The translations under genes were made by a program, and so were the position numbers. Positions 21,375-46,057 of a stretch of DNA of 64,000 nt are shown here, in pieces (positions within the stretch are counted from its first letter, which is position 1; each line of letters begins with the position of its first letter). This DNA comes from an uncultured virus (IMG/VR IMGVR_UViG_3300029317_000049) (Duplodnaviria; Heunggongvirae; Uroviricota; Caudoviricetes), in the IMG/VR virus record IMGVR_UViG_3300029317_000049; one strand, written 5' to 3'. Below the pieces are notes generated by a model. The model had not been told where the DNA came from. It did no database searches and saw nothing but the letters and a program-made list of their open reading frames with translations.

Positions 21375-21489
21375 TAGTTAAATGTTCCTAAACAAAACAC
21401 CCCACCTTATATCATTTTTGAGCTATGACAGTTAATGCGATACTACCTTGTCACCATTAAAGCTATTCAATTAAATGCAGAGCTATTAA

Positions 21490-28094: not shown

Positions 28095-28236
28095 AACAAC
28101 TTTTACACATCATATGATCGCTTTAAGTGGTTGTAAACCACTTTATGTGTTTATTGTTTAAATAAAAACAACTAATAACTATTTGACCTAAACCACTTAA
28201 AGTTATATTAATAGCGTTATAACCACAGAAAGTGTT
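28095..28236. promoter_or_regulatory. CI/Cro operator array
   Basis: AAGTGGTT-GTA-AACCACTT 28125-28143; AACCAC-led dyads at 28136, 28191, 28221. Confidence 0.6.
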
Positions 28237-28261
28237 TTTAATTAACTATTTAGGAGTTAAT

Positions 28262-28888
28262 TTGGGTATTGCAGGACGAGTAAGAGAAAGAAGAACAGCA
28301 TTAGGATTCACTCAATTACAGTTAGCTGAAAATGTTGGTGTTGCTCAGAATTCAATACAAAAAATTGAAAGTGGTGACACTAAAAACCCACGTAACATTG
28401 AAGCACTAGCTCGTGTTCTTAAATGCACCCCAGAATATTTGCGTTTTGGCGTAGGTGAAATGGATAACGCAGCAATAGAACCAGACTTAACAAAAAGCAT
28501 TCCGATAATTGATTATGTTCAAGCCGGTGCGTGGGGTGATATTGAAGGCGTTCAAGAAACTAGCGAAATAGATAATGCTGAGCATTTTGTATGCCCGATA
28601 AACTGTAGTGACTCTTCGTTTGCACTAAGGGTTCAAGGCATCAGTATGGAGCCTAAATTTTTAGACGGTGACTTGATTTTTGTAGATCCCGAATCAGAAT
28701 CTATAAACGGCTCTTATGTTGTGGCAAGGTTAGAAGATGATAACCAAGCCACGTTTAAGCAGTTGGTTATTGAAGGTAATCAAAAGTTTTTAAAGCCACT
28801 TAATAAAGATTGGCCAGATCAACTAATACAGATTAACGCTAATTGCACCATTGTTGGCAGGGTAATTTTTACAGGTAAGGAACTTTAA
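28262..28888 (+). CDS. CI-like repressor (HTH + S24 peptidase)
   Basis: Xre HTH, VQAG cleavage site, GISMEP (Ser), TFKQL (Lys); TTG start after AGGAG. Confidence 0.92.
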   Translation: MGIAGRVRERRTALGFTQLQLAENVGVAQNSIQKIESGDTKNPRNIEALARVLKCTPEYLRFGVGEMDNAAIEPDLTKSIPIIDYVQAGAWGDIEGVQETSEIDNAEHFVCPINCSDSSFALRVQGISMEPKFLDGDLIFVDPESESINGSYVVARLEDDNQATFKQLVIEGNQKFLKPLNKDWPDQLIQINANCTIVGRVIFTGKEL

Positions 28889-29072
28889 TAAATCAAGGAA
28901 TGCCTGGGATAAAATGTACCCCGTAGATACTTGGGAGTGTACAAGATCCAAGAAGATATCTGGCCTACAAAAAAGTGAGAATAAGGTGGTCAAAAGCCGA
29001 TGTAATGCTTTGAGAATGTGGTAATGGTGCCAATATCCGACTAAATCAACAATATCCCAATAGTCACTCTGT

Positions 29073-29122
29073 GCGCATTGAAGACGTTAGCATTTAATTA
29101 TTTGCCATATGTTTTCTAATGA
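29073..29122 (+). repeat. 50-bp site, copy X
   Basis: GCGCATT...GACGTTAGC-N9-TTTGCCATATGTTTTCTAATGA. Confidence 0.85.
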
Positions 29123-29293
29123 ATTACGTCTGTTATTTACTTAATTTTATGTACAGCTCCACCAGAGGTTTACACTTTTTGCGAGAAAGAAGGCATAGCG
29201 CCATTTTTGTACTTAGGGTATAAAATCTAGTTCTTGTTAATTTATTGAGAATCATCGAGTTAACCGTTATTATTAAACTCAATAAATTATGAA

Positions 29294-29353
29294 AGGAGGC
29301 ATGGTGCCTTGTTTAAATAGGGCACCATGCCTCCTAATAAGCTGTTATGTTGC
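29294..29353 (+). other. 42-bp palindrome plus attI-like site
   Basis: AGGAGGCATGGTGCC...GGCACCATGCCTCCT, then AATAAGCT-GTTATGTTGC core. Confidence 0.55.
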
Positions 29354-29408
29354 TAATGAAGCTGATTAGTCCTGATGTGAATGTTAAACCAACAAGGAAG
29401 TGTTACAA

Positions 29409-29933
29409 ATGATAGGTATTATTGCTTTTTCTATTCTCTTTATTTTAATTTATATGGTTCATCGCATTGCTAAACGTTTTTCAACTGATTTTTCAACTGA
29501 TGATAATCCGAAATTACGGAAGCTTTTATATAGGATTGCACTAGGGTTTCTTATTTTTGTGCTAGTGGGTGATGAAATTATAGGAGGCACACAACTGGCA
29601 TATTTTTGTCTTTCAGAACCAAAAAGACAAGTGTTTGTGGATGAACTTGAAGGTCGTACTATTCAAGGACGTAATACTACTTTTATTAAAGAATACACGC
29701 CACTCGATATAGAAAAAAGGATAACTGAAATATTTGATATTAATAGCCACGAACTAGTGTTTAAAAGGTACTGGTATTCTGCTAAGGGTGGATGGCTGAG
29801 TCGTACAATATCTTTTAATGGAAGTAAAAACCCACTTTTGTTTGATGGTAATTGCTCTAACACTAAAAAACTTAAACAATTAAGATTAACAAATAAAATG
29901 AATTACATACGCACAGAATTGACGGCGTTTTAA
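29409..29933 (+). CDS. Membrane protein, gene cassette 1
   Basis: Two N-terminal TM segments; flanked by GTTATGTTGC / GCAACATAAC. Confidence 0.7.
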   Translation: MIGIIAFSILFILIYMVHRIAKRFSTDFSTDDNPKLRKLLYRIALGFLIFVLVGDEIIGGTQLAYFCLSEPKRQVFVDELEGRTIQGRNTTFIKEYTPLDIEKRITEIFDINSHELVFKRYWYSAKGGWLSRTISFNGSKNPLLFDGNCSNTKKLKQLRLTNKMNYIRTELTAF

Positions 29934-29950
29934 CTCGCAACATAACTGTA

Positions 29951-30012
29951 AATCAATGGGGTCAGAGCGATTGATTTCTTTCCCTCACCAAAAGCTAACG
30001 TCAAAAAAGTGC
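29951..30012 (+). repeat. 62-bp direct repeat, left copy (starts with GGGGTCAGA hairpin)
   Basis: 61/62 identical to 34314-34375. Confidence 0.9.
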
Positions 30013-30416
30013 CTTGAGTTCAAATAGTCAGTGCAACACACCTTAAGCTGACGTTAAGTTTAATGCTGCTATTGGCAACTGTGAGCCTAAAGCAGTCATT
30101 AACTTAATTTGAGTTCAAGGTAACTTTGTGCCAACAATCGTCTTTCGCTAACATATGATAAATATTCCCTTAGTCCGTATTTATATATTCTTTCTTATCA
30201 TATTTGGTATTAGTTCCATTAATATAAAAACTGAGTGTTTTTACGTTAAATCAACAGCTTGATGGTTTAGCTATACCAACGGATGATATATCAAGCTAAC
30301 TGATTACAAGTCCGCTACGTGGTATAGCTAATCCTACTAGTTATGCGGCTTAACAGTATGAATAATATCTTTAAATACAATAATAGCCCTATGAGTTTTC
30401 AACCCAATTTATTGCA

Positions 30417-32384
30417 CTAATTATATTTTTTCAGCAAAGCATTGGCTTTATTTGGCAAAAATAACACTCTATTCGTTTTTAATGTTTGAGGGTATTTATT
30501 CAAACCTGTTGCAAGAATTACTTGATAATTCTTTTGATAATCATCAAGAGCTTCAAGTTTATTTATGCACTTAATTAAGTTATCTAGCTCTATTCCTGCT
30601 GTCTCTGGGGTATCAACAATTAAAAACTTAGGAAAAGCCACATCATCATATTTTAATGACATGTTCATCAAAGCAACATAGTACATCATTCTCATAGATA
30701 CTAATGAACTTGCTTCTCGGTATTCACCATCATTAATAAGTGGCAGGTAGTCATCTAAGCTTATACGCGCAGATCTACAATCTGATAATGTATCGGTCAT
30801 TAATTCATTGTAAATAGCACTAAAAGCACTTACTTTGGTACTAACTTCTCTTTTTGTTTTTGATTCTAACTCTTTTCTTTTTAATTCTGCATCTTGCGCT
30901 TTAGAACGTTTAGCTTCAAAATCTTTTTGGAGTTTTTGAAGCTTGCCTTCGATTTCAATTAACTGTTCTAGTTTTCCACTATCCTCTCGAATATCAAGAA
31001 TTTTATCATCAATATCATTGAGACTATCAATATCAATTTCATCATCAATTTTTTCAAGATTTTTTCTTAGGCCAGACTTTAAACTAGGTAATTTAGCTGA
31101 TAATTCTTTAGACTTACCCTTTTCCTGTTGTATATCCAAATTACAATCTGAGATGGCTAACTTTATAGTCGCTAACGTTTTAGTTTTTGATTTTAATATT
31201 TCTTTATATTCTTGAGATGTATAAAAAAATCTTTCATATTGCTCTTCATTAATATCTGAACCACATACACATTTACCATGTCCTCTATCGACTTTTACTA
31301 AGCAGTATGGACAAGTATCACCAGAAAATAAATTTAATTGATCATGTGTATGTATTATTTTGCTAATTTGATTTATTTCACTGATGGTCTCATTCTGAAT
31401 TGTAACTAATTTATATCTTTCATTATAAAGTGATAATAAAATTTCTTTTATATCCCCTAGCTCTAATTCTATTTCTATAATTTGGTTCTTTAAATGCTCT
31501 ATATTGGGCTCAACCGAAACTCGGCAATTTCGGTTCTTCTTAAATGCTTCTCTAGCAGCTTGCAATTTTTCTAACTGAAGATCATTAGCACGCTGCTCAT
31601 TTTGAAGGAAATTAATGTTTTTTAGCTCACCATCACCTCTGATTTTGTCGGCTAGTAATGAATATTCATTTACCAAGCTTTTAGCTACATTCTTATCTTT
31701 ATCTTTTGTTTTAGCATCAACGATAGAGTCATAGTATTCAGAAAATGATTTACCGATTAATAATTCAAAAATAGCTTTACGTAAAATTTCAGAATCAGAC
31801 ACATGATTTTGCTTGATATCTATTTTTTTATAAATATATTCTGGATCTGGCTGTTGATCGTGATACATCAATCTGAAGAGATCGGTAGAGTTAATTTTGA
31901 AGGTGGAATACCCTTGATAAATTTCAACTACAGAAATACCAAGCTCTTTTAATAACCAGTCAGAAAAAGTATATGGCGTATTTTCTCTACGATATATTGG
32001 TAATATAGAAGTGTTTTGAGCATATTTATCTGTGGAAAATGTAATATTTCCATTTTCGGGATCTATTAATTCATCATATTCTGTAAGTGTTACATCATTA
32101 TCATTCAGATATCTTCGTAATTGGTAGTTTCCAACAGAAACCGATATATATATTTCAACGTAATTATTTGTATCTGAAGTTACTTCTTTGTGTTTTTTCT
32201 TTTCGCTATCTTTACGAAATTCTTCAACTCTACCGCCAAAAGCATAGTAAATTAAGTTACAAAGAGTCGTTTTTCCAGTACCATTATCACCTTCAATTAA
32301 TACAATGTTTTTGTCAAAAATTTCTGACTCAAAATGATATTTGTCTCCAGAATAGATAACTTGATTGACTCTTAAATAACCCAT
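30417..32384 (-). CDS. SMC/Rad50-like ABC ATPase (LmuB-like)
   Basis: GDNGTGKT, coiled coils, CPYC..CVCG hook, FLIVDTP Walker B. Confidence 0.85.
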   Translation of the reverse strand: MGYLRVNQVIYSGDKYHFESEIFDKNIVLIEGDNGTGKTTLCNLIYYAFGGRVEEFRKDSEKKKHKEVTSDTNNYVEIYISVSVGNYQLRRYLNDNDVTLTEYDELIDPENGNITFSTDKYAQNTSILPIYRRENTPYTFSDWLLKELGISVVEIYQGYSTFKINSTDLFRLMYHDQQPDPEYIYKKIDIKQNHVSDSEILRKAIFELLIGKSFSEYYDSIVDAKTKDKDKNVAKSLVNEYSLLADKIRGDGELKNINFLQNEQRANDLQLEKLQAAREAFKKNRNCRVSVEPNIEHLKNQIIEIELELGDIKEILLSLYNERYKLVTIQNETISEINQISKIIHTHDQLNLFSGDTCPYCLVKVDRGHGKCVCGSDINEEQYERFFYTSQEYKEILKSKTKTLATIKLAISDCNLDIQQEKGKSKELSAKLPSLKSGLRKNLEKIDDEIDIDSLNDIDDKILDIREDSGKLEQLIEIEGKLQKLQKDFEAKRSKAQDAELKRKELESKTKREVSTKVSAFSAIYNELMTDTLSDCRSARISLDDYLPLINDGEYREASSLVSMRMMYYVALMNMSLKYDDVAFPKFLIVDTPETAGIELDNLIKCINKLEALDDYQKNYQVILATGLNKYPQTLKTNRVLFLPNKANALLKKYN

Positions 32385-32899
32385 GTTTTTATGCCTCGTT
32401 CCCTGTAGATTTTACCTAACATAGTATCCAGAGTAAGTGTTGATAGTCGTTTTATATTAGTTTTCAAACTGTTTAAGTTATTATATTCTTTTCCAAAAAC
32501 TTTTTTATCAAAGAATGTTTTTGGTAGGTTTTTCTTATTTAATGATACGTTCACTAGCGATGAAATATTTCCTTTTTCCAGAGAGATAAACCCTTTTTTC
32601 TCTAAAGTAAAAAGTAATTTCAGAACCTCACTACGTCTCGTTAACCCATTGGAGTAGCTGTTAAATAAATATTCTTTATCAATATTGTTATGTGATTCTG
32701 AATCTAAGTTATTTAATATGTACACTAGCCTTTCATCTTTTATAAAATCGATTATAAAAGCGAGCTTTCTGTAATCTTTAAAATATTTACCATCATTGCA
32801 TTTTAATGAATCTAGAGTAATTATTACTGCATAGCAAAATAGATAAAAATCTTCACCGGATAAGTACATTATTCCTTTTTTGACATTAATATTTTTCAT
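32372..32899 (-). CDS. ABC-3C middle component (LmuC-like)
   Basis: 175 aa, coupled between effector and ATPase. Confidence 0.65.
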   Translation of the reverse strand: MKNINVKKGIMYLSGEDFYLFCYAVIITLDSLKCNDGKYFKDYRKLAFIIDFIKDERLVYILNNLDSESHNNIDKEYLFNSYSNGLTRRSEVLKLLFTLEKKGFISLEKGNISSLVNVSLNKKNLPKTFFDKKVFGKEYNNLNSLKTNIKRLSTLTLDTMLGKIYRERGIKTWVI

Positions 32900-34138
32900 T
32901 TATTTCTCGTCAAACGAAACAAAACAGCTATCAATCAAATCCATGACAACGCCATCAATTGTATTTTTATTAGATATTGTATAATTGTAGTCTTTTTTCA
33001 ATTCTTCTATATGCTCAGATGATGCCGCATTTAACCCTTTAATCGTTGAATCTACTTCAGCTATAGAATTAGGCTCTGGAAAATCGTTATCGAACAAATA
33101 TTGATTACAAGCTTCATATGTTCGGTATTTAAGAGAGAGAAAAGACTTGTTGCCTGCTAGCTGTTCTACTTTAGAACGGCTAGCTAGTCGCGCCAAATGT
33201 CCCAGTTTTCGCTCAGGGTAATCAGGGCATACAGATATTATTTTTTCTGATAAGTTACGTTTATCCGTAATTTCTTTCTCTAAGGCTTCAATTGAATTCC
33301 AAGTTGGATCAGTTGCATGATCTATTTCTTCGGACTCAGCTTCTTTAAAAACTAGCCTTACATCAGATGAATGAACAAACCTACCTGCATAACTTGAATT
33401 ATTTTGTCTTTCATCAATAAGTTCCATCAATAAAGAAAATATAATTTCTTCTTTATTTGCTATTCTTGAATTGTATAACTGAGAGTTTCTTATTAAAGAT
33501 AGGACAGTAGTTTTTAAATCTACTTCATTTTCTTCACCAAAATGCCATTTAATCCTATCTAAAAAATTTTTAAAATCGTCAGAATTAATAACTTTTAAAG
33601 TCTCAACGTGGCCATCAACTTTTTTATCTTGGTATTGCTTTGTATACTCTTCTAATACAATTGATTTTACGGTGTCAACCAGTTCTAGTGAAGTTGAATC
33701 ATTACTCATTAAAATCGACAGGATTGGCTCTTTAGGTAATTTAATAATAGTGCCATTATCGAGCTTTGTCTTTTTTTCCTTTCCTATACCTGAGGTTGTA
33801 TAAAAACCGAGGTTTAATTCATCACTAGCACGCCAAGTATTAATGTAAATATCAAAAAAACTGACTAATGTATTTTTAACTTCATTACTGAAAATAGTAA
33901 AATTAGTCTTTGAATCATAATTTTTATCTTCTTCTACATATTGCGCTGACAATTCACTAGATTCAATTGTGTGGGAAATATCTTCGATGACTTCTATTGC
34001 AGTGTAGAAAATAGAACTTTTTTTATGGTTTAAAGAATCAAGCATTAACTTGATGGCTCGAATTTTTTGTAGCCTAAATCCTTTTGACTTATCTGCCGCT
34101 TCGCGGTTGATTGTTTTATTTTCCATAATATATGTCAA
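32900..34138 (-). CDS. Nuclease effector (Cap4/LmuA-like) with C-terminal domain
   Basis: KGFRLQ...EVIEDI...EEDKNY restriction-fold pattern; first gene of the operon. Confidence 0.7.
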   Translation of the reverse strand: MTYIMENKTINREAADKSKGFRLQKIRAIKLMLDSLNHKKSSIFYTAIEVIEDISHTIESSELSAQYVEEDKNYDSKTNFTIFSNEVKNTLVSFFDIYINTWRASDELNLGFYTTSGIGKEKKTKLDNGTIIKLPKEPILSILMSNDSTSLELVDTVKSIVLEEYTKQYQDKKVDGHVETLKVINSDDFKNFLDRIKWHFGEENEVDLKTTVLSLIRNSQLYNSRIANKEEIIFSLLMELIDERQNNSSYAGRFVHSSDVRLVFKEAESEEIDHATDPTWNSIEALEKEITDKRNLSEKIISVCPDYPERKLGHLARLASRSKVEQLAGNKSFLSLKYRTYEACNQYLFDNDFPEPNSIAEVDSTIKGLNAASSEHIEELKKDYNYTISNKNTIDGVVMDLIDSCFVSFDEK

Positions 34139-34270
34139 GAGCCCTGCGCTAGTAATACTTAATGTTTTTGTTGTTATGTATCAATAATTAATATAACACT
34201 TATGTCAAAATTTTGTCGATAATGAACTAATTAATTATTTGTGAATAAAAAGACCCTTTAGTTAAAAAAA

Positions 34271-34375
34271 CCAATGGGGTCAGAGTAAATCAATGGGGTC
34301 ATAAAATCAATGTAATCAATGGGGTCAGAGCGATTGATTGCTTTCCCTCACCAAAAGCTAACGTCAAAAAAGTGC
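34271..34375 (+). repeat. Tandem CAATGGGGTCA copies plus right 62-bp repeat
   Basis: GGGGTCA at 34276, 34295, 34321. Confidence 0.9.
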
Positions 34376-34460
34376 GCATTAGAGACATTAGCCTTACTTT
34401 TTTTGCCATATATTTTCTAATGAATATTTCATGTCATGTTACTGAGCCGGCTCAGTAACA
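34357..34460 (+). repeat. Full GC-centred dyad, 50-bp site copy Y and 24-bp palindrome
   Basis: GCTAACGTC-N8-GC-N8-GACATTAGC; TTTGCCATATATTTTCTAATGA 34402-34423; TGTTACTGAGCCGGCTCAGTAACA 34437-34460. Confidence 0.85.
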
Positions 34461-34648
34461 CACCTAAAGAACACCAATAAACGTATATTTGATTGATCTT
34501 ACTGTAATTAACACCGTTTTTTATAAGGGCTATTACTGCGTGGGCTTAGTAACATCCTATTTTCAATGGAAAATTCCGTTATTGTGGTTTCTAATACTTT
34601 GAATTTGTGGGATATTAATGTAAATTAATTTTAAATTATGGAATGGAC

Positions 34649-34683
34649 ATTATTGAGCCGGCTCCATAATAAGCTATTAGCTA
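34649..34683 (+). other. Palindrome plus degenerate attI-like site
   Basis: ATTATTGAGCCGGCTCCATAAT then AAGCT-ATTAGCTA; shares TAATAAGCT with the 29335 site. Confidence 0.5.
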
Positions 34684-34707
34684 GCAAACCCAAAGGTTGT
34701 CCAAATC

Positions 34708-35250
34708 ATGTCATTATATTTATATTTCCTGCCACCGATATTAGCTGTTATTTACAAGTGGCTGGAGTACGCTGGCATAATAGACAAATTAACTGGTCGA
34801 GGTTTAGCTTTAGATGGCCTTAAAAGGCTAAGATCTACATCAGGTTACCCAAAAGCTTGGATTTATAATAAAGATCAAGATGAAAAAATATTTAGAGCTA
34901 TAGAGAAGCGAATCTCAAAAAATACAGACCAACCGATTATAATTTCTGCAATAAAAAATGGTTTTAAGCCAAACCTCATTTCAGTTGGCGGAAAACCTAC
35001 TGAGATTGAAGGCTTACCGACTGAGTGGCCACAAGCTGAAAGGTTCTCATACTTACCAAATCAACCTGTACTTTATTTTTTTGAAGTTCCTAAATCAAAA
35101 ACTGGTACAAAATGTGACAGAGCTTGCACGTTAGATGAATTGGATGGTTGGTTAAAAGAAGAAAAAGATAATAGAACCTTTTGGCTCGGTACATTTCTTT
35201 TAGGTGTGATTTCTATCACTTTCCTTTTAGTTAGGCTAAATATTGCTTAG
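34708..35250 (+). CDS. Membrane-anchored hypothetical protein, cassette 2
   Basis: Terminal hydrophobic segments; flanked by ATTAGCTA / TAGCTAAT. Confidence 0.7.
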   Translation: MSLYLYFLPPILAVIYKWLEYAGIIDKLTGRGLALDGLKRLRSTSGYPKAWIYNKDQDEKIFRAIEKRISKNTDQPIIISAIKNGFKPNLISVGGKPTEIEGLPTEWPQAERFSYLPNQPVLYFFEVPKSKTGTKCDRACTLDELDGWLKEEKDNRTFWLGTFLLGVISITFLLVRLNIA

Positions 35251-35345
35251 CTAATAAGGAAATCAAACGGACACGCAACTGTTGGCTGCGTTTCGCTACA
35301 CAATCTTAGCCAACTATTACTTAGCCTGTTATTTAGGCTTTATTC
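35248..35345 (+). repeat. Degenerate attC site
   Basis: Inverse core at stop codon, internal GTTGGCT/AGCCAAC dyad, core-like end; similar to 36997-37074. Confidence 0.7.
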
Positions 35346-35359
35346 ATAAGAAGTAGACT

Positions 35360-35980
35360 GTGAGTAAATTTGATATAAAAGTACAAATGAATCCTGTAAT
35401 AATGTCCATATTAGCCTTGTTAGTTTCATTCATTGGTTTGTTTTTTTCGTACCAGGCTAATGATTTAGCAAAAGAGCAATACCGACAAAGTAGGTTAATT
35501 GTTTTAAAAGCTGATTTTCTAAAACAAGATGATACCTTTATTCATGTTGAACCTATTGATGGCAATACTCATTTTATACGGGGAACTGCTTATTTACCTC
35601 CTGTGATTCATAAAGAAGAAGTACCTATTGCCTCTAATGGTAATATTTTACACATGGGTTCTATTAGTTCAGAAATTAAAGATCATTTTTTAACTTACGT
35701 ATCTTCTGAGAAAGGTATAACTAAAATATCAGAGGGAGATATCCCTGTTTTAATCAAATCATACTATGTATCGAAAGGTGTCGGATACACAGATATATCG
35801 TTATATATGCTTGGCATGCAAGTCATATTAACGGAAGAACAACATGCGAGGCCAAAAATACAATTTACGAGCTTGGCATTTATCGAACGTTATAACGAAC
35901 TCAATGATATTAACTATGAAATGCTGGATGCTATGGTTTCAAGTGAAAAAGGATTTCAGTTACCTATCAATAAGCCTTAG
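35360..35980 (+). CDS. TM-anchored hypothetical protein, cassette 3
   Basis: Flanks TTTATTCATAAG / CTTATGTATAAC are 10/12 complementary. Confidence 0.7.
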   Translation: MSKFDIKVQMNPVIMSILALLVSFIGLFFSYQANDLAKEQYRQSRLIVLKADFLKQDDTFIHVEPIDGNTHFIRGTAYLPPVIHKEEVPIASNGNILHMGSISSEIKDHFLTYVSSEKGITKISEGDIPVLIKSYYVSKGVGYTDISLYMLGMQVILTEEQHARPKIQFTSLAFIERYNELNDINYEMLDAMVSSEKGFQLPINKP

Positions 35981-36067
35981 AACTTATGTATAACAAGTGA
36001 CTATGGTGAGTTATCAATACAAAACCTAATCCGAAAAATTGTGTTGCACTGACCGTTTGAAATCACA

Positions 36068-36117
36068 GCGCTAAGCGGACTTTAGCATCAAATTTTTTAC
36101 CATATATTTTCTAATGA
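36068..36117 (+). repeat. 50-bp site, copy Z
   Basis: GCGC...GACTTTAGC-N9-TTTACCATATATTTTCTAATGA. Confidence 0.85.
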
Positions 36118-36213
36118 ATTATTCGTGTCATATAACTGAGAAGTCTTAGTAACAGCCCGAAAGTAACACATTTATTTTCTAAGTAATTATTTTATATTTA
36201 CACTCAATAATAA

Positions 36214-36425
36214 CTGTATAAATACATAGTTTAATCGAGTTTCCCCTATATTCAGGAAAATAAGCAAATTGCGCATTTTCGTCCGTTGATAATTTTAAAA
36301 GTGCTTTAACTAGAAAAGCTATATTGAATTTGCTATTAATAGTGAAAGTAGAAAAGTGCGCGACTTGTCAGCAGAAATATGCGCAACTTGCGCAACTTGC
36401 GCATTATTAAATTGTTATGTTTTTA
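36214..36425 (+). promoter_or_regulatory. attI-like region with degenerate LexA box
   Basis: CTGTATAAATACATAG 36214-36229; TGCGCAACT tandem 36379-36404; GTTATGT core at 36414. Confidence 0.5.
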
Positions 36426-36444
36426 GTATTCTTCGAGGGAGCTT

Positions 36445-37002
36445 ATGAATAAATCAATATTAATAAATGTGACTGCAGTTGTAATATCAATCTGCGCATT
36501 GACCCTATCCCTTAAACAAGCACAAGAAGCTGAAAAAGTAAGTAGTGTATCTGTGTTTCCTCACATAGATATAACTATGGTTGGAGGTAAAGGTTCAGGA
36601 CAAGAAAACGGAATTCGTTTAGATAACGCAGGAACGGGGCCAGCATTAATTGATGACTTTAATTTGTATGTTGATGGCAAAATAATAAAAGGAAAAAAGC
36701 ATGAACTTTGGTGGGATGCACTGATAAAACTAGGCTTTACCCCACAAGAGATTTATGACTTCAGAACCTTTTATTTTACGAATACTGCAGCTTTAAAAGA
36801 TGGTAATGTGTACTATTTGATAAGACCAAAGTTAATCAATAATGACGAATTTAGAAGCCTAACAGAGTACGAATGGGATAAGTTGCAGAAGCTGACTATA
36901 AGAATTGATTATCACGGTGCTTTTGGCGACAAATGCTATGTTACTTACACTCCTGCGAATAAAGGGAGTGCTATTGAACGCACCGAGTGTATAAAAACAT
37001 AA
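36445..37002 (+). CDS. TM-anchored hypothetical protein, cassette 4
   Basis: NAGTGPALI motif; flanked by perfectly complementary GTTATGTTTTTA / TAAAAACATAAC. Confidence 0.75.
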   Translation: MNKSILINVTAVVISICALTLSLKQAQEAEKVSSVSVFPHIDITMVGGKGSGQENGIRLDNAGTGPALIDDFNLYVDGKIIKGKKHELWWDALIKLGFTPQEIYDFRTFYFTNTAALKDGNVYYLIRPKLINNDEFRSLTEYEWDKLQKLTIRIDYHGAFGDKCYVTYTPANKGSAIERTECIKT

Positions 37003-37074
37003 CAAGCTAATTAATAAGGATAAAAAACAGTTTGCTGTTTTCGTCCCTCAACATTTTAGCCAACTAAATTTTGC
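36997..37074 (+). repeat. attC site truncated by the Mu-like prophage
   Basis: ACATAAC...GTTTGCT...AGCCAAC...TTTTGC with no final core. Confidence 0.65.
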
Positions 37075-37162
37075 TGATACAGAGAGAGAAAAGAATACAA
37101 GAAAACAGAGATAAATGTGAAATTTTGTGAAATTGTGCGGAATTGAATGATTTAGTATTTGC

Positions 37163-37193
37163 AAAAGACTTTCATATGCTGAAAGTCTTTTTT
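37163..37193. terminator. Bidirectional terminator after mor
   Basis: AAAAGACTTTCA/TGAAAGTCTTTT stem. Confidence 0.75.
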
Positions 37194-37203
37194 GTTGGGG
37201 GAT

Positions 37204-37542
37204 TTAGAACAATTGGGGTTGGAGTTTATCCCTTTCTTCTTTACTAGCAATTTTTATAACTCTATAAACATGCGTTGTAGACATATTGAACTCTTTACCT
37301 AGTGCAACATGGTTACTACCCGTAAATGCTTTATATATAGCATGGTGTTTCATTATTGCATTTGTTTTTCTACCATAAGCAAAATAGATATGCTCGCCAC
37401 CAAATTGATTACGTAGTTCGTCGCATACCTCAGTTGCCATTTTTTCAGCGTTATCTTTATCAACGCCAAATTTAATCAAGTTCTCCTCTATGTGTAATAA
37501 CAATTGAAATACAAACTCGGCAGAACGTTCGGGTAAGCTCAT
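37204..37542 (-). CDS. Mor/C-family transcription activator
   Basis: FGGEHIYF...IYKAFTGSNHVAL...MSTTHVYRVI. Confidence 0.9.
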   Translation of the reverse strand: MSLPERSAEFVFQLLLHIEENLIKFGVDKDNAEKMATEVCDELRNQFGGEHIYFAYGRKTNAIMKHHAIYKAFTGSNHVALGKEFNMSTTHVYRVIKIASKEERDKLQPQLF

Positions 37543-37547
37543 AGTAA

Positions 37548-38027
37548 TTAAGTCCTGTATTGATCCTGAATTTTATGAAACATCGCGTTGTTAGCTTCAG
37601 TGCTTTCTTCAAAGCCCCTTTTAATAACAGCTTGTGAGTCTTTAACTTTGGTTGCGCTAGCTGTTGGGTGATGGAATTTCTCTTCAGTAGTTTTCAGTAC
37701 CTGGATTAAATAGCTGTGGTTTTTAAACGGCTGTAACGTACCTGATTGGCGTTTAGCTTGAATACTTAATGTAGTTTGTTCCAGGGCTGCACTAAGCGCT
37801 TGCTCATTGCCAGATAGTTCAAGTACTTCATTTATTAACTTAACTGCACGGTCATTGTTTAGATCTGATTTCTCAGGTCGCCACAATGCTACATACCCAA
37901 TAACATGCGTGGCTAGCTTAGGTTTTAACTTAGCTACCAGGGCCAATAGAGATTTAGCGCTACTGTCTTGCACTAACGTATCTAAATTAAGATGACCGTG
38001 ACAACTTGGGCAACGTGCTAGTTTCAT
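37548..38027 (-). CDS. Mu-like hypothetical protein (CPSC)
   Basis: RCPSC...YVALWRP...KNHSYL. Confidence 0.65.
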   Translation of the reverse strand: MKLARCPSCHGHLNLDTLVQDSSAKSLLALVAKLKPKLATHVIGYVALWRPEKSDLNNDRAVKLINEVLELSGNEQALSAALEQTTLSIQAKRQSGTLQPFKNHSYLIQVLKTTEEKFHHPTASATKVKDSQAVIKRGFEESTEANNAMFHKIQDQYRT

Positions 38028-38479
38028 ACGTTAGATCCTCGCTCTTTTCTTCCTTCTCTTTCAAGCCAGTTTTTCAGTTGCTCAATTGCTTGATAAAACA
38101 TATCTGGCGTAAACCATTCGAGCTTAGTTACTGGTACACCATCATTTTGCGCTTTGCAGTTTGACTTTGCCCAGCTCTCCAATGCTGAATAAGAACGGTC
38201 TTTAACAAACCCAGCGTCAGCCATTTCTTGCCATAAAGAATAAAGCTTGGCATGTGAACCTTTTAATTTAGGCTTAACTTTACTCTGCACTTTAAACCCT
38301 GATTTTTTCATGTGCTCAAGTACTTTGAACAACTCAGGGATAGTCATTGATGAACAGCTGCGTTTACCGGTTAATTCGTTTAAATTTGCTCGATACAAAT
38401 CATCATCAAGCTGTAACTGGCTTTTAGCTATATGAATGAGTTTAATGTACCAGGACTTAGGTTTGTATTCTGTTCTCAT
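38024..38479 (-). CDS. gemA: GemA/gp16-like protein
   Basis: LIHIAKSQLQLDDDLYR...TGKRS...IEQLKNW. Confidence 0.85.
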   Translation of the reverse strand: MRTEYKPKSWYIKLIHIAKSQLQLDDDLYRANLNELTGKRSCSSMTIPELFKVLEHMKKSGFKVQSKVKPKLKGSHAKLYSLWQEMADAGFVKDRSYSALESWAKSNCKAQNDGVPVTKLEWFTPDMFYQAIEQLKNWLEREGRKERGSNV

Positions 38480-38688
38480 GATTTTCTCTCCGCTAGAAAT
38501 TTTTTGTCTGCTTCCTGCTCAGCTTCAATTATGAGATGACACTCAGAGCAATATTGGTACTCTTCAGTATCTGCATCATGGTGCCAGTTATGCATCGCTA
38601 GAAACTGTTCAATAGTATCAGTCCCTGTAGAATCAATGCTTTTGAAGCAATTGAGAGCATCACAGTTAATGGTTGTTTCAATAGACAT
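38476..38688 (-). CDS. Small Cys-rich protein
   Basis: CDALNC...CSEC. Confidence 0.6.
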   Translation of the reverse strand: MSIETTINCDALNCFKSIDSTGTDTIEQFLAMHNWHHDADTEEYQYCSECHLIIEAEQEADKKFLAERKS

Positions 38689-38690
38689 TA

Positions 38691-38936
38691 TTAATTCTCA
38701 CTAAGGTCACGAAAAGAAATTTTTATCCCCTTGATTAGCTCAGGCATAATCAAACCTAACTCTTCAACTTCTTGTTTAATGAATTGATAGTTAGCCAAAA
38801 AACGCATGGCAAAGCCACTACGATCTAAAGCGATAAACATACTTTCAGTTTTACCGCTTTCAGCAACTTTTTTATCCCATCGTTTTTTAGCTTGTTCAAA
38901 CGCTGAATCCACTTGTTCTTGACTAATTTCACTCAT
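38691..38936 (-). CDS. Hypothetical protein
   Basis: 81-aa ORF in early operon. Confidence 0.55.
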   Translation of the reverse strand: MSEISQEQVDSAFEQAKKRWDKKVAESGKTESMFIALDRSGFAMRFLANYQFIKQEVEELGLIMPELIKGIKISFRDLSEN

Positions 38937-38983
38937 AATATTCTCTGCTTATATAAGGTATGGCTTTCGCCGTTGTTTCACCC

Positions 38984-39011
38984 AAAAAGCCGCCCTGAAA
39001 TCAGGCGGCTT
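38984..39011 (-). terminator. Terminator after HU gene
   Basis: AAGCCGCC/GGCGGCTT stem with A tract. Confidence 0.7.
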
Positions 39012-39029
39012 ACTGGTTATTAGTCAAAA

Positions 39030-39305
39030 CTAGCTGTTTACAGCGTCCTTAAGTCCCTTGCCAACTTTAAACTTCGCCACTTTAGCCGCCGCAATTTGAA
39101 TGGTTGCGCCTGTTTGTGGGTTTCGACCAGTGCGAGCAGCACGGGCACCTAATGAAAACGTACCAAAGCCAACCAACGCCACATCACCGCCTTGCTTGAG
39201 TTCGTCAGTTACCGCGACAGTAAACGCATCTAGTGCGCGACCAGCTGCTGCTTTAGAAATGTCTGCATTGATTGAAATTTTTTCTATTAATTGAGATTTG
39301 TTCAT
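39030..39305 (-). CDS. hup: HU DNA-binding protein
   Basis: MNKSQLI...GFGTF...GRNPQTG. Confidence 0.93.
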
Positions 39306-39331
39306 ATTAAATTCCCCTTGAGGATTGAGTG

Positions 39332-39406
39332 TTAAGCACATTGTCTTTGTTTTTGCCAAAGCCATTGGCGCTGTCGTTTTAGTAACTTTTTATTTTTTGC
39401 TTTCAT
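39332..39406 (-). CDS. 24-aa basic peptide (not in ORF track)
   Basis: [35 protein letters not shown]. Confidence 0.35.
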
Positions 39407-39415
39407 TGCTTCCCT

Positions 39416-40039
39416 TTAAAGGCTCTTACTAACCAACGGAATTTGCACCCAAGCGCCTTGTATATTGCGCTCTTGAAACGTAATGTACGTTTTAGAACTA
39501 CTGCAAATAATGGCTTCGTCTAACGCCTTCATTGCATTGCTCCATTTATCAGACTTATTTGCATCACGGTATTTACGCAACGCTAAGATGCGGTTTTTGT
39601 TGTATTGGCCTTGCTTGTCAGCTTCGAATGCATCACGCATTAGTTGTGATATGAAAGTACTAGTTTCAGCAAGTTCTTCTTCTATAACTTCAGTGATAAG
39701 TTGTTTAGCAATATCAATCTCAGCACCAAAAGAAATTTGATCTGCAATCCCAACTTGAATCTTCTTCTTTTGGTCAAAGCTTGTTAAAGAAATATTACCT
39801 TTAGCCCCACCAATGCTCACTTCGTATTCATCAGCGACTAAAGCGATAAGGTCGTTAACCTCGCTGAAGACTCTTCGTTTAAAGTCTTCGTGAGCTTTGC
39901 TTTGCTCTTTTGCTTGCGCGGTTAGCAGCATTACCAAGTCATGCTTTAACAAATCTTGAGGTTTTATTTCGCTAATAGGTGTTTGAAAACCTCGACTATT
40001 CATTAAAAATTTAGGTTTTTCTATTACTGTTGTCATCAT
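39416..40039 (-). CDS. DUF3164-like protein
   Basis: GGAKGNISLTSFD...W..AMKAL...SKTYI. Confidence 0.8.
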   Translation of the reverse strand: MMTTVIEKPKFLMNSRGFQTPISEIKPQDLLKHDLVMLLTAQAKEQSKAHEDFKRRVFSEVNDLIALVADEYEVSIGGAKGNISLTSFDQKKKIQVGIADQISFGAEIDIAKQLITEVIEEELAETSTFISQLMRDAFEADKQGQYNKNRILALRKYRDANKSDKWSNAMKALDEAIICSSSKTYITFQERNIQGAWVQIPLVSKSL

Positions 40040-40048
40040 TATTTCCTG

Positions 40049-40222
40049 TTAGTAATGTTCGTTAATATCTAAGTCAAAATCTTTCTTGCAAGATGTGCAT
40101 TTTATTTCATAGGTTCCAACTTCTATCGCTGTAGTGCAGCCATGCTCATGAGTACCTTGATCGTCTTCACAATGAGGACAATAAAATTCAATGTTCAAAT
40201 TTACACTTACTGAAGCAGTCAT
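40049..40222 (-). CDS. 57-aa zinc-ribbon protein (not in ORF track)
   Basis: GGGGAA RBS; CPHC...CTSC. Confidence 0.65.
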   Translation of the reverse strand: MTASVSVNLNIEFYCPHCEDDQGTHEHGCTTAIEVGTYEIKCTSCKKDFDLDINEHY

Positions 40223-40231
40223 CGTGTTCCC

Positions 40232-41665
40232 CTATTTGATCATGCCGATAAGTTCGGCGGTAATTACTGGCTCACAAGCGCTAGCTGCTTCGTTCATAGC
40301 CTTAACCAGTAAAGTGTTAACCATTAACGGATACGTCATATCTTTACTGCCTTTAGGTTTGTTGATACCGTATTGAACTTCGCCTTGAAGCTTGTTTTTC
40401 ATGGCTTCAATAGCATCAGGTGTGATCACGTTTTTATAGTCCACATTGCAACGTCCTAGCTTATGAGCCACATAATCAGTGATTGAAGCGCCCAGTGGTG
40501 GCATGTTCATGATGTTGCAGCGGTAAGAAAATTCACGAATCTCAAAATTAGATAAACTTAATGTGGCTTCAAGCTCAGTTTGACCAACCAAAATAACGCT
40601 AACCAAACGATTAAAACCATCACGTAACTCACAAATACGTTTCAAATGCTTTAAGGCGGCATTACTTAAATCGTGAGCTTCCTCAATAACCACCACATGT
40701 TTAAAACCTGCTTTAGCGCTTTGCTTTAACGTGCGCTCAATTTTACGTGCCCGGTTCTCAAGGCCATTAGGCATAGACTTAACATTTAACTCTTCAGCCA
40801 ACGCATCAAAAATCATGGCTGCAGTTAAGCGTTTTTTATCTATGATCATAGGCTCAATAATCATCAACTCAGGGTTGTTCTTACTTACATAGTCGTAAAA
40901 GCCTTTACGCAGTTCAGTTTTACCCGCACCACATTCACCAATTACCGCTAAAATACTGCCGTTAAGGCTCGCTTGTACCATGCTTTCACGCACACGGTGT
41001 TGTGCATGGCTCATGAATAAATCTTCAATGCAATGCACTTCATTTTCAAAGGGGTGACGAGTCAAATTAAAATGACTCATCGTTTTTTGGTAAAGCATTT
41101 CAGGCTCCAATGGCTCAAAAATTACAGTGGGTTTAGGGGTGTTTTTTATTGTTGTTTTGCCTTTTTTCTCTTTTGTTTCATTCCACATAGTTGAAAGCTC
41201 ATGCGTACTAACGTGCTCACTCATAAACTTTTCAATAGCGGCTTTTATTAATTCCTCTTCTATTGTTTTTGGCCATATTCCATGGCGCAATAGTTGACTA
41301 ACGGCAGAGGGAGAAAGCTTCACGCCTGTTGTTTCCATCGCTCTGCGTAAATCAGCTTGTTGTAATTCATACTTCGTTAATAACGGCAGTACCTGGTAAG
41401 CGGCTGTCGCATTAACACTTGTTGGTGCTGCTTTTAGCATTTCCTCTATTTCCTCATTGTTGTCTTCACCCAATAAGCGGGTAAAGCATTCACGAATAGC
41501 ATTAGGGTTTGTACGTGCTGGCCATTGCTCATACCGAATAAAATTAAGCAATGACGTTTTTGAAATGTGCGACCCGTGGGCATTCATATCAGCGACTACG
41601 TCAAGTTGATTAATACCGTGCGATTTCAACGTTCTTACAATTAAACTTTTCTGAGCAAGTGCCAT
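40232..41665 (-). CDS. MuB/ExeA-like AAA+ ATPase
   Basis: GECGAGKT, VVIEEAH, LVGQTEL; follows transposase. Confidence 0.9.
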   Translation of the reverse strand: MALAQKSLIVRTLKSHGINQLDVVADMNAHGSHISKTSLLNFIRYEQWPARTNPNAIRECFTRLLGEDNNEEIEEMLKAAPTSVNATAAYQVLPLLTKYELQQADLRRAMETTGVKLSPSAVSQLLRHGIWPKTIEEELIKAAIEKFMSEHVSTHELSTMWNETKEKKGKTTIKNTPKPTVIFEPLEPEMLYQKTMSHFNLTRHPFENEVHCIEDLFMSHAQHRVRESMVQASLNGSILAVIGECGAGKTELRKGFYDYVSKNNPELMIIEPMIIDKKRLTAAMIFDALAEELNVKSMPNGLENRARKIERTLKQSAKAGFKHVVVIEEAHDLSNAALKHLKRICELRDGFNRLVSVILVGQTELEATLSLSNFEIREFSYRCNIMNMPPLGASITDYVAHKLGRCNVDYKNVITPDAIEAMKNKLQGEVQYGINKPKGSKDMTYPLMVNTLLVKAMNEAASACEPVITAELIGMIK

Positions 41666-41678
41666 GGTGATCTCCTTA

Positions 41679-43457: not shown

Positions 43458-43491
43458 AAATTTCCCCTACTGAAAATAAAACACGTGAAAA

Positions 43492-44445
43492 TTAGTCAAC
43501 TAAACGCTGTTCAGCAGGTTCATCTTCATTTTGCAGATTCAAAAAAGTATCCTCAGCAGATACATCAGGGCGATACTTACCACCCAACACACCAAATAAT
43601 TCGTTAGTAAAGTTATTCACTAAGGCATGAGCTGCTTGCGCTTCGCTTAATAAACTACGCGCAATTAAATCAATGGCTTTATCGTCTAACGATTCATCAT
43701 TCTGTAAGTTGTCAAAAACATCAGCTAATTGATTGATGCCTTGTTCTATGGCTGTTTTTGCATGCATCATGGCAGCGACATTATCTAAGGTTTGACGTTG
43801 CCAAGGTGCTTGGTTGAAACGGCGTATAGCCTCTATTTCTTTTATTTTATTAAGCTCTTGTTGTGTTTCAGCCGAGTTCTCGCGTACTGCTGAAACGGTT
43901 TGGTTGGCATCATCTACTTGTTTTTGCAATTCAGCTTTTTCAATCACTTGCTTGAAATTAAGGTCTTCAATAAGCTCTTTAACCGCTTCTTTATCAGATA
44001 AATCAACGGCTTCACTGTTGATGATAAGTTGTTGAGACTCTTCAGGTAATTGGCGTAATTTGCGAAGTTCACGATTGCCAAGGCCCATAGACTGAGAGGA
44101 TTCAAAAAATTCTTGACCAAAAGATTCTAGATTTTGTTCGTCCTCTTGCATGGAACGGTAAGAGCGCCCAAAAAACACAGTACAAACATCCTTAATATCT
44201 GCGACCGTCGCACTTTTCCCATCTTCATCGGTATAGACCAAACCCTTGTATTGCTTGGATTCTTTAATCTTTTTAAAGGTTACTAATTCTGCGACAGTCG
44301 CATACTTCTTCATGTTGTTAAAAGCTTGTATTTGACCTATTGCCATCAATACATCTTGCTTACTTGCCAATACCGCTTTGGCATCTACAACAGCTGTTTG
44401 CTGTTCTGCAGACAGTTCTGTAACTTTTGTGTGTTCATTATTCAT
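43492..44445 (-). CDS. DUF3102-like early protein
   Basis: KIKESKQYKGL...GLGNRELRKLRQLP; upstream of transposase. Confidence 0.6.
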   Translation of the reverse strand: MNNEHTKVTELSAEQQTAVVDAKAVLASKQDVLMAIGQIQAFNNMKKYATVAELVTFKKIKESKQYKGLVYTDEDGKSATVADIKDVCTVFFGRSYRSMQEDEQNLESFGQEFFESSQSMGLGNRELRKLRQLPEESQQLIINSEAVDLSDKEAVKELIEDLNFKQVIEKAELQKQVDDANQTVSAVRENSAETQQELNKIKEIEAIRRFNQAPWQRQTLDNVAAMMHAKTAIEQGINQLADVFDNLQNDESLDDKAIDLIARSLLSEAQAAHALVNNFTNELFGVLGGKYRPDVSAEDTFLNLQNEDEPAEQRLVD

Positions 44446-44480
44446 GGGTTTTTTCCTAAGAAATGGCTAGTGTTTGAAAG

Positions 44481-45620: not shown

Positions 45621-45672
45621 TATTATTTTTTAACCCCTGATAAATTTAGACAATCGTTGTTTACACCCAAAA

Positions 45673-46036: not shown

Positions 46037-46057
46037 GTCAACACTTTTATATGACAC

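Follow-up and report, generated by a model that had tools for sequence, protein, structure and literature searches.

Organisation of the locus

The window, that is, the whole 64,000-nucleotide stretch that was analysed, carries a series of short gene cassettes flanked by a prophage repressor gene on one side and a Mu-like prophage on the other (Table 1). In our judgement, the region from 29,071 to 37,074, together with about 0.6 kb past the Mu-like prophage, quite probably consists of three integron modules in tandem, each without an integrase and all from a host of the Colwellia type. The first-pass annotation had counted four cassettes; five are now found, spread over the three modules, and two apparently later insertions shape the region. 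Each module would follow the same order, with a conserved head, an attI-type docking site, one or two cassettes and a conserved tail, and the docking sites lie 240-310 bp downstream of the heads. The head appears to combine a palindrome with a GTGCGCA core and a nearly invariant 24-mer, while the cassettes seem to have the attC type of the host genus itself.

The head block of module 1 aligns with a copy at 21340, which heads a CHRD/PEP-CTERM gene without attC, and the same block is present in Colwellia loci. In module 2, the second copy of the 62-bp repeat and the head together form the full palindrome GCTAACGTC-N7-TGCGCA-N5-GACATTAGC. The attC remnant of cassette 3 retains R'' at 35987-94 and R' (GTTATC) at 36010, and is followed by the tail ACAAAACCTAATCC at 36019-32. 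The loci L088 and L048 have this short attC form as well, while many loci contain the tail motif.

All four cassette ORFs of the window, as well as the fifth, which is located beyond the Mu-like prophage, contain a hydrophobic 19-residue segment (Kyte-Doolittle mean at least 1.6), in agreement with the membrane anchoring first assigned to the four proteins. The anti-phage role suggested for them found no direct support, and the five ORFs gave no PADLOC or NCBIfam matches. The four window ORFs were likewise without Pfam matches, and the fifth had only a sub-cut-off match to 8xMP.

The segment of about 6 kb that holds the putative Lamassu-type operon and module 2 lies between modules 1 and 3, and its probable boundaries would place the insertion within the GTGC|GC core of the module 3 head. 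The putative LmuA (412 aa) and LmuC (175 aa) of the operon had no PADLOC, Pfam or NCBIfam match. The other event was the transposition of the Mu-like phage into the last attC. This prophage measures 38,918 bp (38.9 kb), begins with TGATACAGAG and ends with CTCGGCATCA (TG...CA), and is bordered by a 6-bp duplication, TTTTGC. Judged by its genes, ends and short target duplication, it is a Mu-like transposable phage; its rve match is weak.

Table 1. Features of the module region and its surroundings (window coordinates)
Feature	Position	Strand	Basis or remark
Fourth head-block copy, inside P2-like prophage between ogr and gpA	21340..21375	+	Alignment to module heads
S24/HTH cI-type repressor of P2/HP1-like prophage	28232..28888	+	Pfam Peptidase_S24 9.3e-28, HTH_3 4.2e-13; left neighbour of modules
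Module 1 head block, GTGCGCA-N5-GACGTTAGC ... TTTGCCATATGTTTTCTAATGAAT	29071..29124	+	Direct-repeat family D1, 3 copies
attI-like site 1: palindrome centred on TTGTTTAAATAG, then TAATAAGCTG|TTATG; crossover 29344/29345	29294..29349	+	Palindrome I9
Cassette 1: ORF1 (29409-29933, 174 aa, two hydrophobic stretches), R''-like end GCAACATAAC	29345..29946	+	Exact 10-mer complement of cassette start
62-bp repeat copy 1: hairpin AATCAATGGGGTCAGAGCGATTGATT and left half of head palindrome, broken after GTGC	29951..30012	+	D4, 98% identity to 34314-34375
Segment of about 6 kb with putative Lamassu-type operon and module 2	30013..36068		Bounded by 28-bp inverted repeats I1 (30013-40 / 36040-66)
Putative Lamassu-type defence operon	30417..34138	-	PADLOC LmuB 7.7e-61
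LmuB, SMC-like ATPase	30417-32384	-	PADLOC 7.7e-61
Putative LmuC (175 aa)	32372-32899	-	Position and size only
Putative LmuA (412 aa)	32900-34138	-	Position and size only
62-bp repeat copy 2 joined to module 2 head block	34314..34425	+	Repeat analysis, alignment
attI-like site 2: three 20-bp palindrome copies (34439, 34533, 34650), the third leading into CCATAATAAGCTA|TTAGC; crossover 34676/34677	34439..34679	+	D5
Cassette 2: ORF2 (34708-35250, 180 aa, C-terminal hydrophobic segment) and attC_2 (35247-35347)	34677..35339	+	attC model R1
Cassette 3: ORF3 (35360-35980, 206 aa), very short attC remnant, conserved tail	35340..36032	+	Sequence
Module 3 head block	36066..36119	+	D1 copy 3
attI-like site 3: LexA-type box, GCGCAACTT tandem, CATTATTAAATTG|TTATG; crossover 36414/36415	36214..36419	+	Sequence
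Cassette 4: ORF4 (36445-37002, 185 aa) and 5' part of attC_4 (36995-37074)	36415..37074	+	attC model R1
Mu-like transposable prophage inside attC_4	37075..64000, on to about 75,992		Mor, GemA, DUF3164, Portal_Mu, gpT and others

Recombination sites and integrase

A covariance model of attC (R1) was built only from 40 attC sites in integrase-adjacent arrays of three other Colwellia genomes. Its secondary structure is backed by covariation, with 97.4% of the cells paired and 9 of 18 pairs changed on both sides, which was reached in 0 of 500 shuffles. Only two R1 matches with E < 0.09 were obtained in the 64-kb window, both on the + strand, namely attC_2 at 35247-35347 (67.9 bits, E 4.6e-12) and attC_4 at 36995-37094 (40.6 bits, E 3.7e-6), the latter interrupted by the Mu-like prophage. 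These are exactly the two attC-like dyads for which the first-pass annotation had asked for such a model, although the dyad at 36997-37074 proved to be only the 5' three quarters of a site. The remainder lies past the Mu-like prophage (L004 14299-14320), and the two halves align colinearly with a reference attC. On the basis of R1, the cassettes are followed by the R''-L''...L'-R' hairpin of a complete integron, with cassettes 1 and 3, for which the search returned no full attC, retaining remnants only.

At the cleavage site, the G found in 40/40 reference sites is replaced by T in both window attCs (at 35339 in attC_2), which makes their current activity doubtful. The R'' of attC_2 moreover reads TAAT instead of TAAC (AAT for AAC), and this site alone folds no better than shuffles (z -0.98). 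Given the mutated attC_2 and attC_4 and the lack of a full attC in cassettes 1 and 3, the window copies may be frozen. Among the head-associated attCs of other genomes, CGTT is kept in about 42 of 58, according to a reading of the site tails.

Each of the four genes had also been described as bracketed by complementary core pairs, and this holds exactly for three of them. The ORF1 pair, GTTATGTTGC at 29344 and GCAACATAAC at 29937, is an exact 10-mer that was equalled in 3/2000 flank shuffles, the ORF4 pair lengthens to an exact 14-mer (TTGTTATGTTTTTA at 36412; 0/2000), and for ORF2 an exact 9-mer is present (TATTAGCTA at 34675; 24/2000). The ORF3 pair, however, is inexact, since the 12-mers noted earlier are imperfect complements and no exact match exceeds 6 nt (1120/2000 shuffles). 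Flank complements of 10-11 nt were also present in 2 of 19 other + strand ORFs of the window, so that pair length alone is unremarkable. Both the ORF3 result and this control would suit ordinary small prophage genes flanked by inverted repeats of chance origin or by terminators, an explanation that we nevertheless consider extremely improbable: the shuffles for ORF4 and ORF1 speak against it, as does a junction consensus common with attI sites adjoining intI, and the matches to the independent attC model effectively refute it.

The first cassettes had been proposed to follow attI-like sequences instead of attC sites, each abutting a palindrome or tandem repeat, and the three junctions do resemble real attI sites; by this likeness, the modules would possess the attI of an integron. 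At junction 1, the palindrome (29294-29335) has 21-nt arms with 90% complementarity, and the layout of palindrome and TAATAAGCTG|TT is that of the attI adjoining intI in the Colwellia loci L132, L133, L136 and L137, which also have in common with it AATAAGCTG|TTA and a long upstream palindrome centred on GTTTAAA; the junction words are as in L131. The crossover of junction 2 reads A|TT, not G|TT, and its consensus, ...ACATTACTGAG..CTCCATAATAAGCG|TTA, is common to L006, L012, L020, L021 (two copies), L042, L045 and L048 (8 other loci). Site 3 contains the one-mismatch SOS box reported earlier, a LexA-type CTGT-N8-ATAG at 36214-36229, as well as the GCGCAACTT tandem at about 36381-36404. The box lies 201 nt from the crossover (203 nt in L131, a complete integron), and the site resembles both locus L036 and a Shewanella-type attI as quoted in PMC9892861. 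Where a head could be paired with its first attC, the complement of the R'' of that attC directly follows a junction of the ...ATAA(G/A)N(G/T) type in 13 of 26 cases. With the attC model matching and this similarity to attI sites adjoining intI, the refutation proposed in the first-pass annotation fails, and the cassettes are genuinely of the integron type.

The reported absence of an integrase was borne out: tblastn with Colwellia IntI found no integron integrase in the 64-kb window or in the 18.8 kb beyond it, and the TIGR02249 profile had no match in record G001, which corresponds to window positions 28,696 to about 80,544. By these searches of the window, L004 and G001 (about 80 kb), the locus lacks the array-adjoining IntI of a complete integron. 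Among the head-bearing loci fetched, there was no IntI orthologue within 6 kb, only three matches of about 30% identity (L071, L046). IntI above the curated TIGR02249 cut-off was found in 5/5 genomes and in 43/55 genomes of the genus, and Colwellia genomes also contain many intI fragments and pseudogenes. No IntI above the cut-off was detected in the searched assemblies G164 (12 heads), G181 (15), G200 (6) and G159 (3), so that the family is maintained even where no local enzyme is available.

Heads and tails across Colwellia

The conserved head of about 55 bp opens every module. Searching 55 Colwellia genomes with a 21-mer of the head (up to 2 mismatches) located it in 40 of them, with as many as 19 copies each, while the reversed pattern used as control gave 2 matches in all. 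The 24-mer of the head is nearly invariant across species. A same-strand R1 attC lies within 3.5 kb of 22/58 head copies, and an opposite-strand attC was seen in only one locus; 36/58 copies have no attC within reach. Cassette arrays downstream of heads are short, with one or two cassettes in the window and elsewhere as many as 7 or more. In 49 of 54 copies, the first dominant downstream ORF points the same way as the head. Upstream neighbours vary, the largest common protein cluster accounting for 3/57 copies. Some heads precede ordinary genes, such as a GGDEF gene (L055) and the CHRD gene (21,682), and these, like the heads without attC, imply that the head is not strictly part of an integron. 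The head motif was absent within 1.5 kb of 8/8 intI loci. A consensus promoter scan showed no enrichment (26 sites against 39.8 +/- 5.8 in shuffles).

Both module ends are built alike, as imperfect palindromes of the form GCTAAKGWC-N5-core-N5-GWCMTTAGC that have GTGCGCA as the core in heads and TGTGGYA in tails. In tandem modules, the linker from tail to head is short, and in L060 the tail motif directly abuts the next head. One chromosomal site holds differing cargo among genomes. Instead of the repeated capture of attI and first-cassette units that had been proposed, the comparison suggests that the three window units belong to a family with conserved head and tail that is dispersed over many Colwellia genomes.

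Interpretation and relation to known integrons

The cassettes were probably inserted by IntI-type recombination at G|TT, the footprint being first cassette bases complementary to the R'' end of the cassette's own attC. Because no integrase is nearby, any cassette turnover would necessarily occur in trans, through the chromosomal IntI carried by most Colwellia, and expression may be driven from the head, as the cargo is co-oriented with it. In its widest form, this would be a distributed integron in which dozens of integrase-less docking modules lie in the chromosome and prophages of Colwellia, the heads drive expression, the end palindromes let whole modules move, one chromosomal IntI fills many first, expressed positions, and phages are able to carry modules between cells. 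We offer this reading tentatively, as possible rather than probable.

The modules might instead be dead debris, pieces of a chromosomal integron that was formerly complete and became scattered through rearrangements and inserting prophages, with recombination and special expression lost. Such decay would fit the mutated cleavage-site G of both window attCs, the truncated attCs after cassettes 1 and 3, the interruption of attC_4 by the Mu phage and the commonness of intI fragments and pseudogenes in Colwellia genomes; CALINs in general are thought to come partly from integrase loss or rearrangement (PMC4889954). It fits less well with three attI types that have the same head before each and no intI remains, with a head that is not near the eight intI loci, with mostly intact head-associated attCs elsewhere, or with different cargo at one chromosomal site in different genomes. 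The near-invariance of the 24-mer across species and the co-orientation of the cargo argue for selection, and we regard debris as a rather unlikely origin. Similarly doubtful in our view is that whole head-to-tail units are self-contained and mobile, moving by site-specific recombination at the end palindromes of about 37 bp through a non-IntI enzyme (Xer or an unknown recombinase), with attI and cassettes as cargo. The common palindrome design, the short linkers and the direct abutment in L060 would all be expected from this, as would the unrelated surroundings of the copies and the breakpoints after GTGC, seen at 30012/30013 of the window as well as at a locus compared in G004, G181 and G161, a site that is empty in eight other genomes. 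Furthermore, the head in L006 is located downstream of a filamentous (Zot) prophage, and such phages use Xer. Nevertheless, no recurring recombinase gene accompanies the modules, and dif-type pattern searches in 5 genomes gave nothing convincing. The head begins with a GGTGCGCA-type word that resembles a XerC arm, but there is little conservation in its other, right-hand arm. Neither a target duplication nor a clean empty site was seen at nucleotide resolution, the spacer of the empty genomes being too diverged.

Among known systems, the window modules come close to CALINs, clusters of attC sites lacking an integron integrase (Cury et al. 2016, PMC4889954). These are frequent in genomes encoding IntI elsewhere, and their definition is silent on attI, which IntegronFinder is unable to search for in most integrons. 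The window agrees with CALINs in having at least two same-strand attC sites without intI nearby, the two R1 sites being 1.65 kb apart on the + strand, and on sequence grounds the modules are an attI-headed CALIN. They differ in that every run is short, has a recognisable attI-type site and is framed by a conserved head and tail; the runs stand in tandem, and their family reaches 19 copies per genome. An attI-headed, integrase-less cassette run inside or beside an alteromonad prophage, as described in PMC9892861, has the same arrangement, and the module 3 junction resembles its attI type; the window differs from that system by the absence of an integron integrase in 80 kb, three tandem attI types, the conserved head and tail, and genus-wide dispersal. 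The sedentary chromosomal integrons of Colwellia (intI, attI and homogeneous attC arrays; L131, L139-L141) have the same attC family. Module 1 has their attI crossover words and palindrome layout and module 3 their LexA-type box, roughly 200 nt away from the crossover, but the modules carry a conserved head in place of intI, and short arrays. Class 1 integrons derive from Tn402 but are defective; they have conserved segments on their 5' and 3' sides and inverted repeats at their termini, and are moved in trans. They likewise hold cassette arrays between conserved segments ending in inverted repeats and have no mobility genes of their own; unlike the window modules, they keep intI1, and the end repeats of the modules are palindromes.

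An integron is usually pictured as a single integrase with a single attI and a single array, of which only the first cassettes are expressed, while CALINs are usually viewed as leftovers of unknown origin. In Colwellia, integrase-less arrays with their own attI, head and tail occur up to 19 times per genome, also in prophage accessory regions beside a probable defence system. If these arrays are served in trans, the origin of many CALINs would be explained, the expressed positions of an integron would be multiplied, and phages would gain a way to move docking sites along with cassettes.

attC sites and cassette boundaries

The attC sites were modelled on Colwellia; its genomes had been reached with a motif from the conserved block (head) that lies upstream. 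The intI-adjacent arrays of three Colwellia genomes gave 41 attC sites, the 40 complete ones being aligned to build the covariance model R1, and in these arrays the R' of each extracted attC was the complement of the next R'', which is the usual chain. The four-helix structure of R1 was supported by covariation, with 97.4% of cells paired and 9 of 18 pairs changed on both sides, a level reached in none of 500 shuffles. Searched over the 64-kb window, R1 matched attC_2 with 67.9 bits (E 4.6e-12) and attC_4 with 40.6 bits (E 3.7e-6), while the next best match had an E of 0.09; these are the same places in which the first-pass annotation had recognised two attC-like dyads. Rfam, which seems to hold no attC family, gave no match over the 64 kb at gathering thresholds and, at an E-value threshold in the module region, nothing but a snoRNA match put down to chance (E 0.028). 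Cassettes 1 and 3 finish on an R''-like ...CATAAC or ...TATAAC word without a full attC, and the short attC form behind ORF3 is also present at two compared loci, L088 and L048. In another P2-like prophage (L142), whose repressor is 62% identical, an element of ~60 nt at 9390-9460 resembles a short attC (ACATAAC...GTTATAC); it lies between minus-strand ORFs downstream of that repressor and is not matched by R1.

The core strings proposed to bracket the four cassette genes were all found at their positions in the window sequence. Flank complements of 10, 14 and 9 nt at ORF1, ORF4 and ORF2 were reached in 3, 0 and 24 of 2000 flank shuffles, respectively, and those at ORF3 fell short of significance. 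Complement length alone is weak proof, since 2 of 19 control ORFs in the window also had flank complements of 10-11 nt.

attI-like sites and the head and tail family

Beside intI in Colwellia, the attI of four loci (L132, L133, L136 and L137) has a long palindrome with GTTTAAAC-like bases at its centre and then (A/T)AT(A/T)AAGCTG directly before the crossover and TTA after it; the attI junction of a fifth intI-adjacent locus, L131, is CTTAATAAACTG/TTA (slash, crossover). The module 1 site, a palindrome with 21-nt arms and then TAATAAGCTG/TTATG, has the same layout, so that its earlier description as attI-like appears sound. In module 3, GCGCA repeats are followed by TTATTAAATTG/TT, and this site, likewise proposed to be attI-like, resembles a Colwellia copy (L036) as well as the Shewanella-type attI given in PMC9892861; the distance from its LexA-type box to the crossover is 201 nt, compared with 203 nt for the perfect box of L131. 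The 20-bp palindromes of the module 2 site were ruled out as LexA boxes, their CTG-N8-CAG spacing being 2 nt too short. The module 2 site fits the consensus ...ACATTACTGAG..CTCCATAATAAGCG/TTA, also found in L006, L012, L020, L021 (two copies), L042, L045 and L048. In 13 of 26 head/first-attC pairs the R'' complement of the first attC begins directly after the attI-type junction, which we read as the footprint of insertion at G/TT.

Each module starts with the head, a block of ~55 bp composed of GTGCGCA-N5-GACATTAGC, ~13 variable bases and TTTGCCATATATTTTCTAATGAAT. Besides the three copies in the module region, the window holds one at 21,340, within the P2-like prophage. The head 21-mer (at most two mismatches) occurred in 40 of the 55 Colwellia genomes, with a maximum of 19 copies, against two matches in total for the reversed control. 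Among the 58 head copies examined, 22 were accompanied by a same-strand R1 attC no more than 3.5 kb away, with up to seven attCs behind one head (L048); an opposite-strand attC was found at one of the head-bearing loci. The first dominant ORF downstream was co-oriented with the head in 49 of 54 copies, and the genes upstream vary from copy to copy. Many modules also share a conserved tail, ACAAAAYCTAATCC and, 37 nt on, GCTAATGTC-N5-TGTGGYA, and the ends of heads and tails are palindromes of one design. In tandem modules just a short linker separates tail from head, and in L060 the tail motif is continuous with the next head. On an isolate-derived viral contig (L006, 691-2520), a head and a three-cassette run are immediately preceded by a filamentous-phage Zot-like gene and a small ORF.

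One reading of the head, as a remnant of the start of intI, was dropped: in several copies, stops interrupt the minus-strand frames, and the likeness to eight intI loci is limited to the crossover words. No IntI orthologue was found within 6 kb of the head-bearing loci, nor any head within 1.5 kb of intI at the eight intI loci.

By the definition given in PMC4889954, the window locus is a CALIN, an attC cluster without integrase, and the attI-headed CALIN of Shewanella prophage M16-3, as described in PMC9892861, provides a precedent. A conserved head and tail, a tandem, dispersed multi-copy family and several attI types were not encountered in a limited literature search.

Prophage setting and later insertions

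Annotation of 80 ORFs of the window against Pfam delimited three regions, the integron modules sitting between a P2/HP1-like prophage and a Mu-like phage.

Coordinates of the main features in and beyond the module region
Feature	Position	Strand	Size	Content or remarks	Basis
P2/HP1-like prophage	1-28,900			capsid, terminase, tail, ogr, gpA, AlpA-type, Cro-like genes, S24 repressor	Pfam
S24 repressor of P2/HP1-like prophage	28232-28888				Pfam
62-bp direct repeat	29951-30012 / 34314-34375		62 bp	98% identical; flanks Lamassu-type operon	
Segment between modules 1 and 3	30,013-36,068		~6 kb	28-bp inverted repeats at ends	boundaries read from sequence
Lamassu-type three-gene operon	30417-34138	-		two partners without family match	LmuB E 7.7e-61
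attC_2	35247-35347				R1
attC_4	36995-37094				R1
Mu-like prophage inside attC_4	37,075 to ~75,992 (14298 in L004, which extends the window)		38,918 bp	complete-looking	
Mu-like transposable phage genes	from ~37,200			Mor, GemA, HU-like, DUF3164, ATPase/transposase pair, Mu head genes	Pfam

The Mu-like prophage carries imperfect inverted repeats at its termini, which read TG...CA, and is accompanied by a 6-bp duplication of the target (TTTTGC); the attC_4 halves on either side of it are colinear with a reference attC; to judge from these junctions, it has transposed into an integron attC site. Beyond it lie a fifth cassette with an 8xMP-like ORF, a tail and an integrase. The ~6-kb segment holds the Lamassu operon, the second copy of the 62-bp repeat and module 2, and its left junction, read from the sequence, falls after GTGC within a head palindrome. 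A short hairpin element, AATCAAWGGGGTCAGARC.ATTTGATT, was observed at downstream edges of accessory genes (22294, 22409(-), ~22718, 23379, 29951, 34269, 34288 and 34314).

From 28,696 onward the window sequence is identical to that of a viral record (G001), which extends 16.5 kb past the window end; there the Mu phage is followed by a small membrane ORF, then by a P4-type integrase of 436 aa and the host gene fadE. No tRNA gene was found. AlpA-type genes usually partner P4-type integrases. Because an AlpA-type gene lies in the early operon and a head between ogr and gpA, the modules may lie within the P2-like prophage, flanked by its repressor and its integrase. The region had no megablast match among phage records, nor did relatives of either the repressor or the P4-type integrase offer an informative empty site. 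In the stretch 21340-23400, the fourth head, which is the one between ogr and gpA, precedes a CHRD / PEP-CTERM gene; behind it come a small hydrophobic ORF on the minus strand and a ParD/ParE pair (22784-23373). The early operon also contains a 207-aa ORF (26328-26951, minus strand) with a weak methyltransferase-like PADLOC match (E 0.008).

Mobility, cargo and activity

At one chromosomal site compared across genomes, G004 carries a GGDEF gene between a head and a tail (L055), G005 (L179) and G006 (L178) other modules, G181 (L177) a segment with a CBS-domain gene and G161 (L176) a lone head palindrome, and eight genomes have nothing at the site. With different cargo behind one GTGC breakpoint in five genomes, and with eight others empty, the site is a hotspot of head-type modules. 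Breakpoints follow ...CACTTTGTGC and precede AATGGGGGCAGAG, which fits recombination at the palindrome core. AATGGGGGCAGAG, the right edge of the variable site in G004 and G181, is a word related to the AATCAAWGGGGTCAGARC.ATTTGATT hairpin.

No partner enzyme for such recombination was found. An IS91-family transposase and a tyrosine recombinase abut the head in L071 / L183 (4790-5860) and L184, which are identical copies in one genome; in L012 and L063, heads are preceded within 2 kb by relatives of the recombinase. As a pair seen in L071/L184 alone, it was rejected as a general head partner. Patterns of dif type gave no site in five genomes, leaving the Xer/dif idea without support.

The four window cassette ORFs had no Pfam match, the fifth an 8xMP match of 27.5 bits, under the cut-off of 30, and none of the five matched NCBIfam or PADLOC; each contains a hydrophobic segment. 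In a protein atlas ORF3 and ORF4 fell in unnamed clusters only, and no cassette-protein homologue was found in ~1 Mb of compared loci. Weak relatives of ORF4 occur in 8 of 151 family genomes, with a Colwellia-type attC at only one of the eight loci, on the other strand. Hints of a defence role for these proteins come only from their neighbourhood and from two preprints (10.1101/2024.07.02.601686 and 10.1101/2024.07.02.601719).

Among contigs of public runs, the module region was present in several. Joints between 35342/3 and 36999/37000 had sides shorter than 30 nt, and other attC copies are their probable source; loose ends at 37074, which continue into an intact 3' part of an attC, may belong to other copies of the array. 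No usable sign of cassette excision was found in these contigs.

IntI above the TIGR02249 cut-off was detected in 43 of the 55 Colwellia genomes (5 of 5 in the first set tested); in the assemblies searched, G164, G181, G200 and G159 carry 3-15 heads each and no IntI above the cut-off. G164 and G181 have 12 and 15 heads, some of them clustered with five in 18.5 kb, and only IntI fragments in these assemblies. The cleavage G is kept in 40 of 40 reference attCs and is T in both window attCs; attC_2 also has AAT in place of AAC and folds poorly on its own. Since the window sites have lost this G, whereas CGTT is kept in about 42 of 58 head-associated attCs elsewhere, the head family looks active in some genomes, with the window copies partly decayed.
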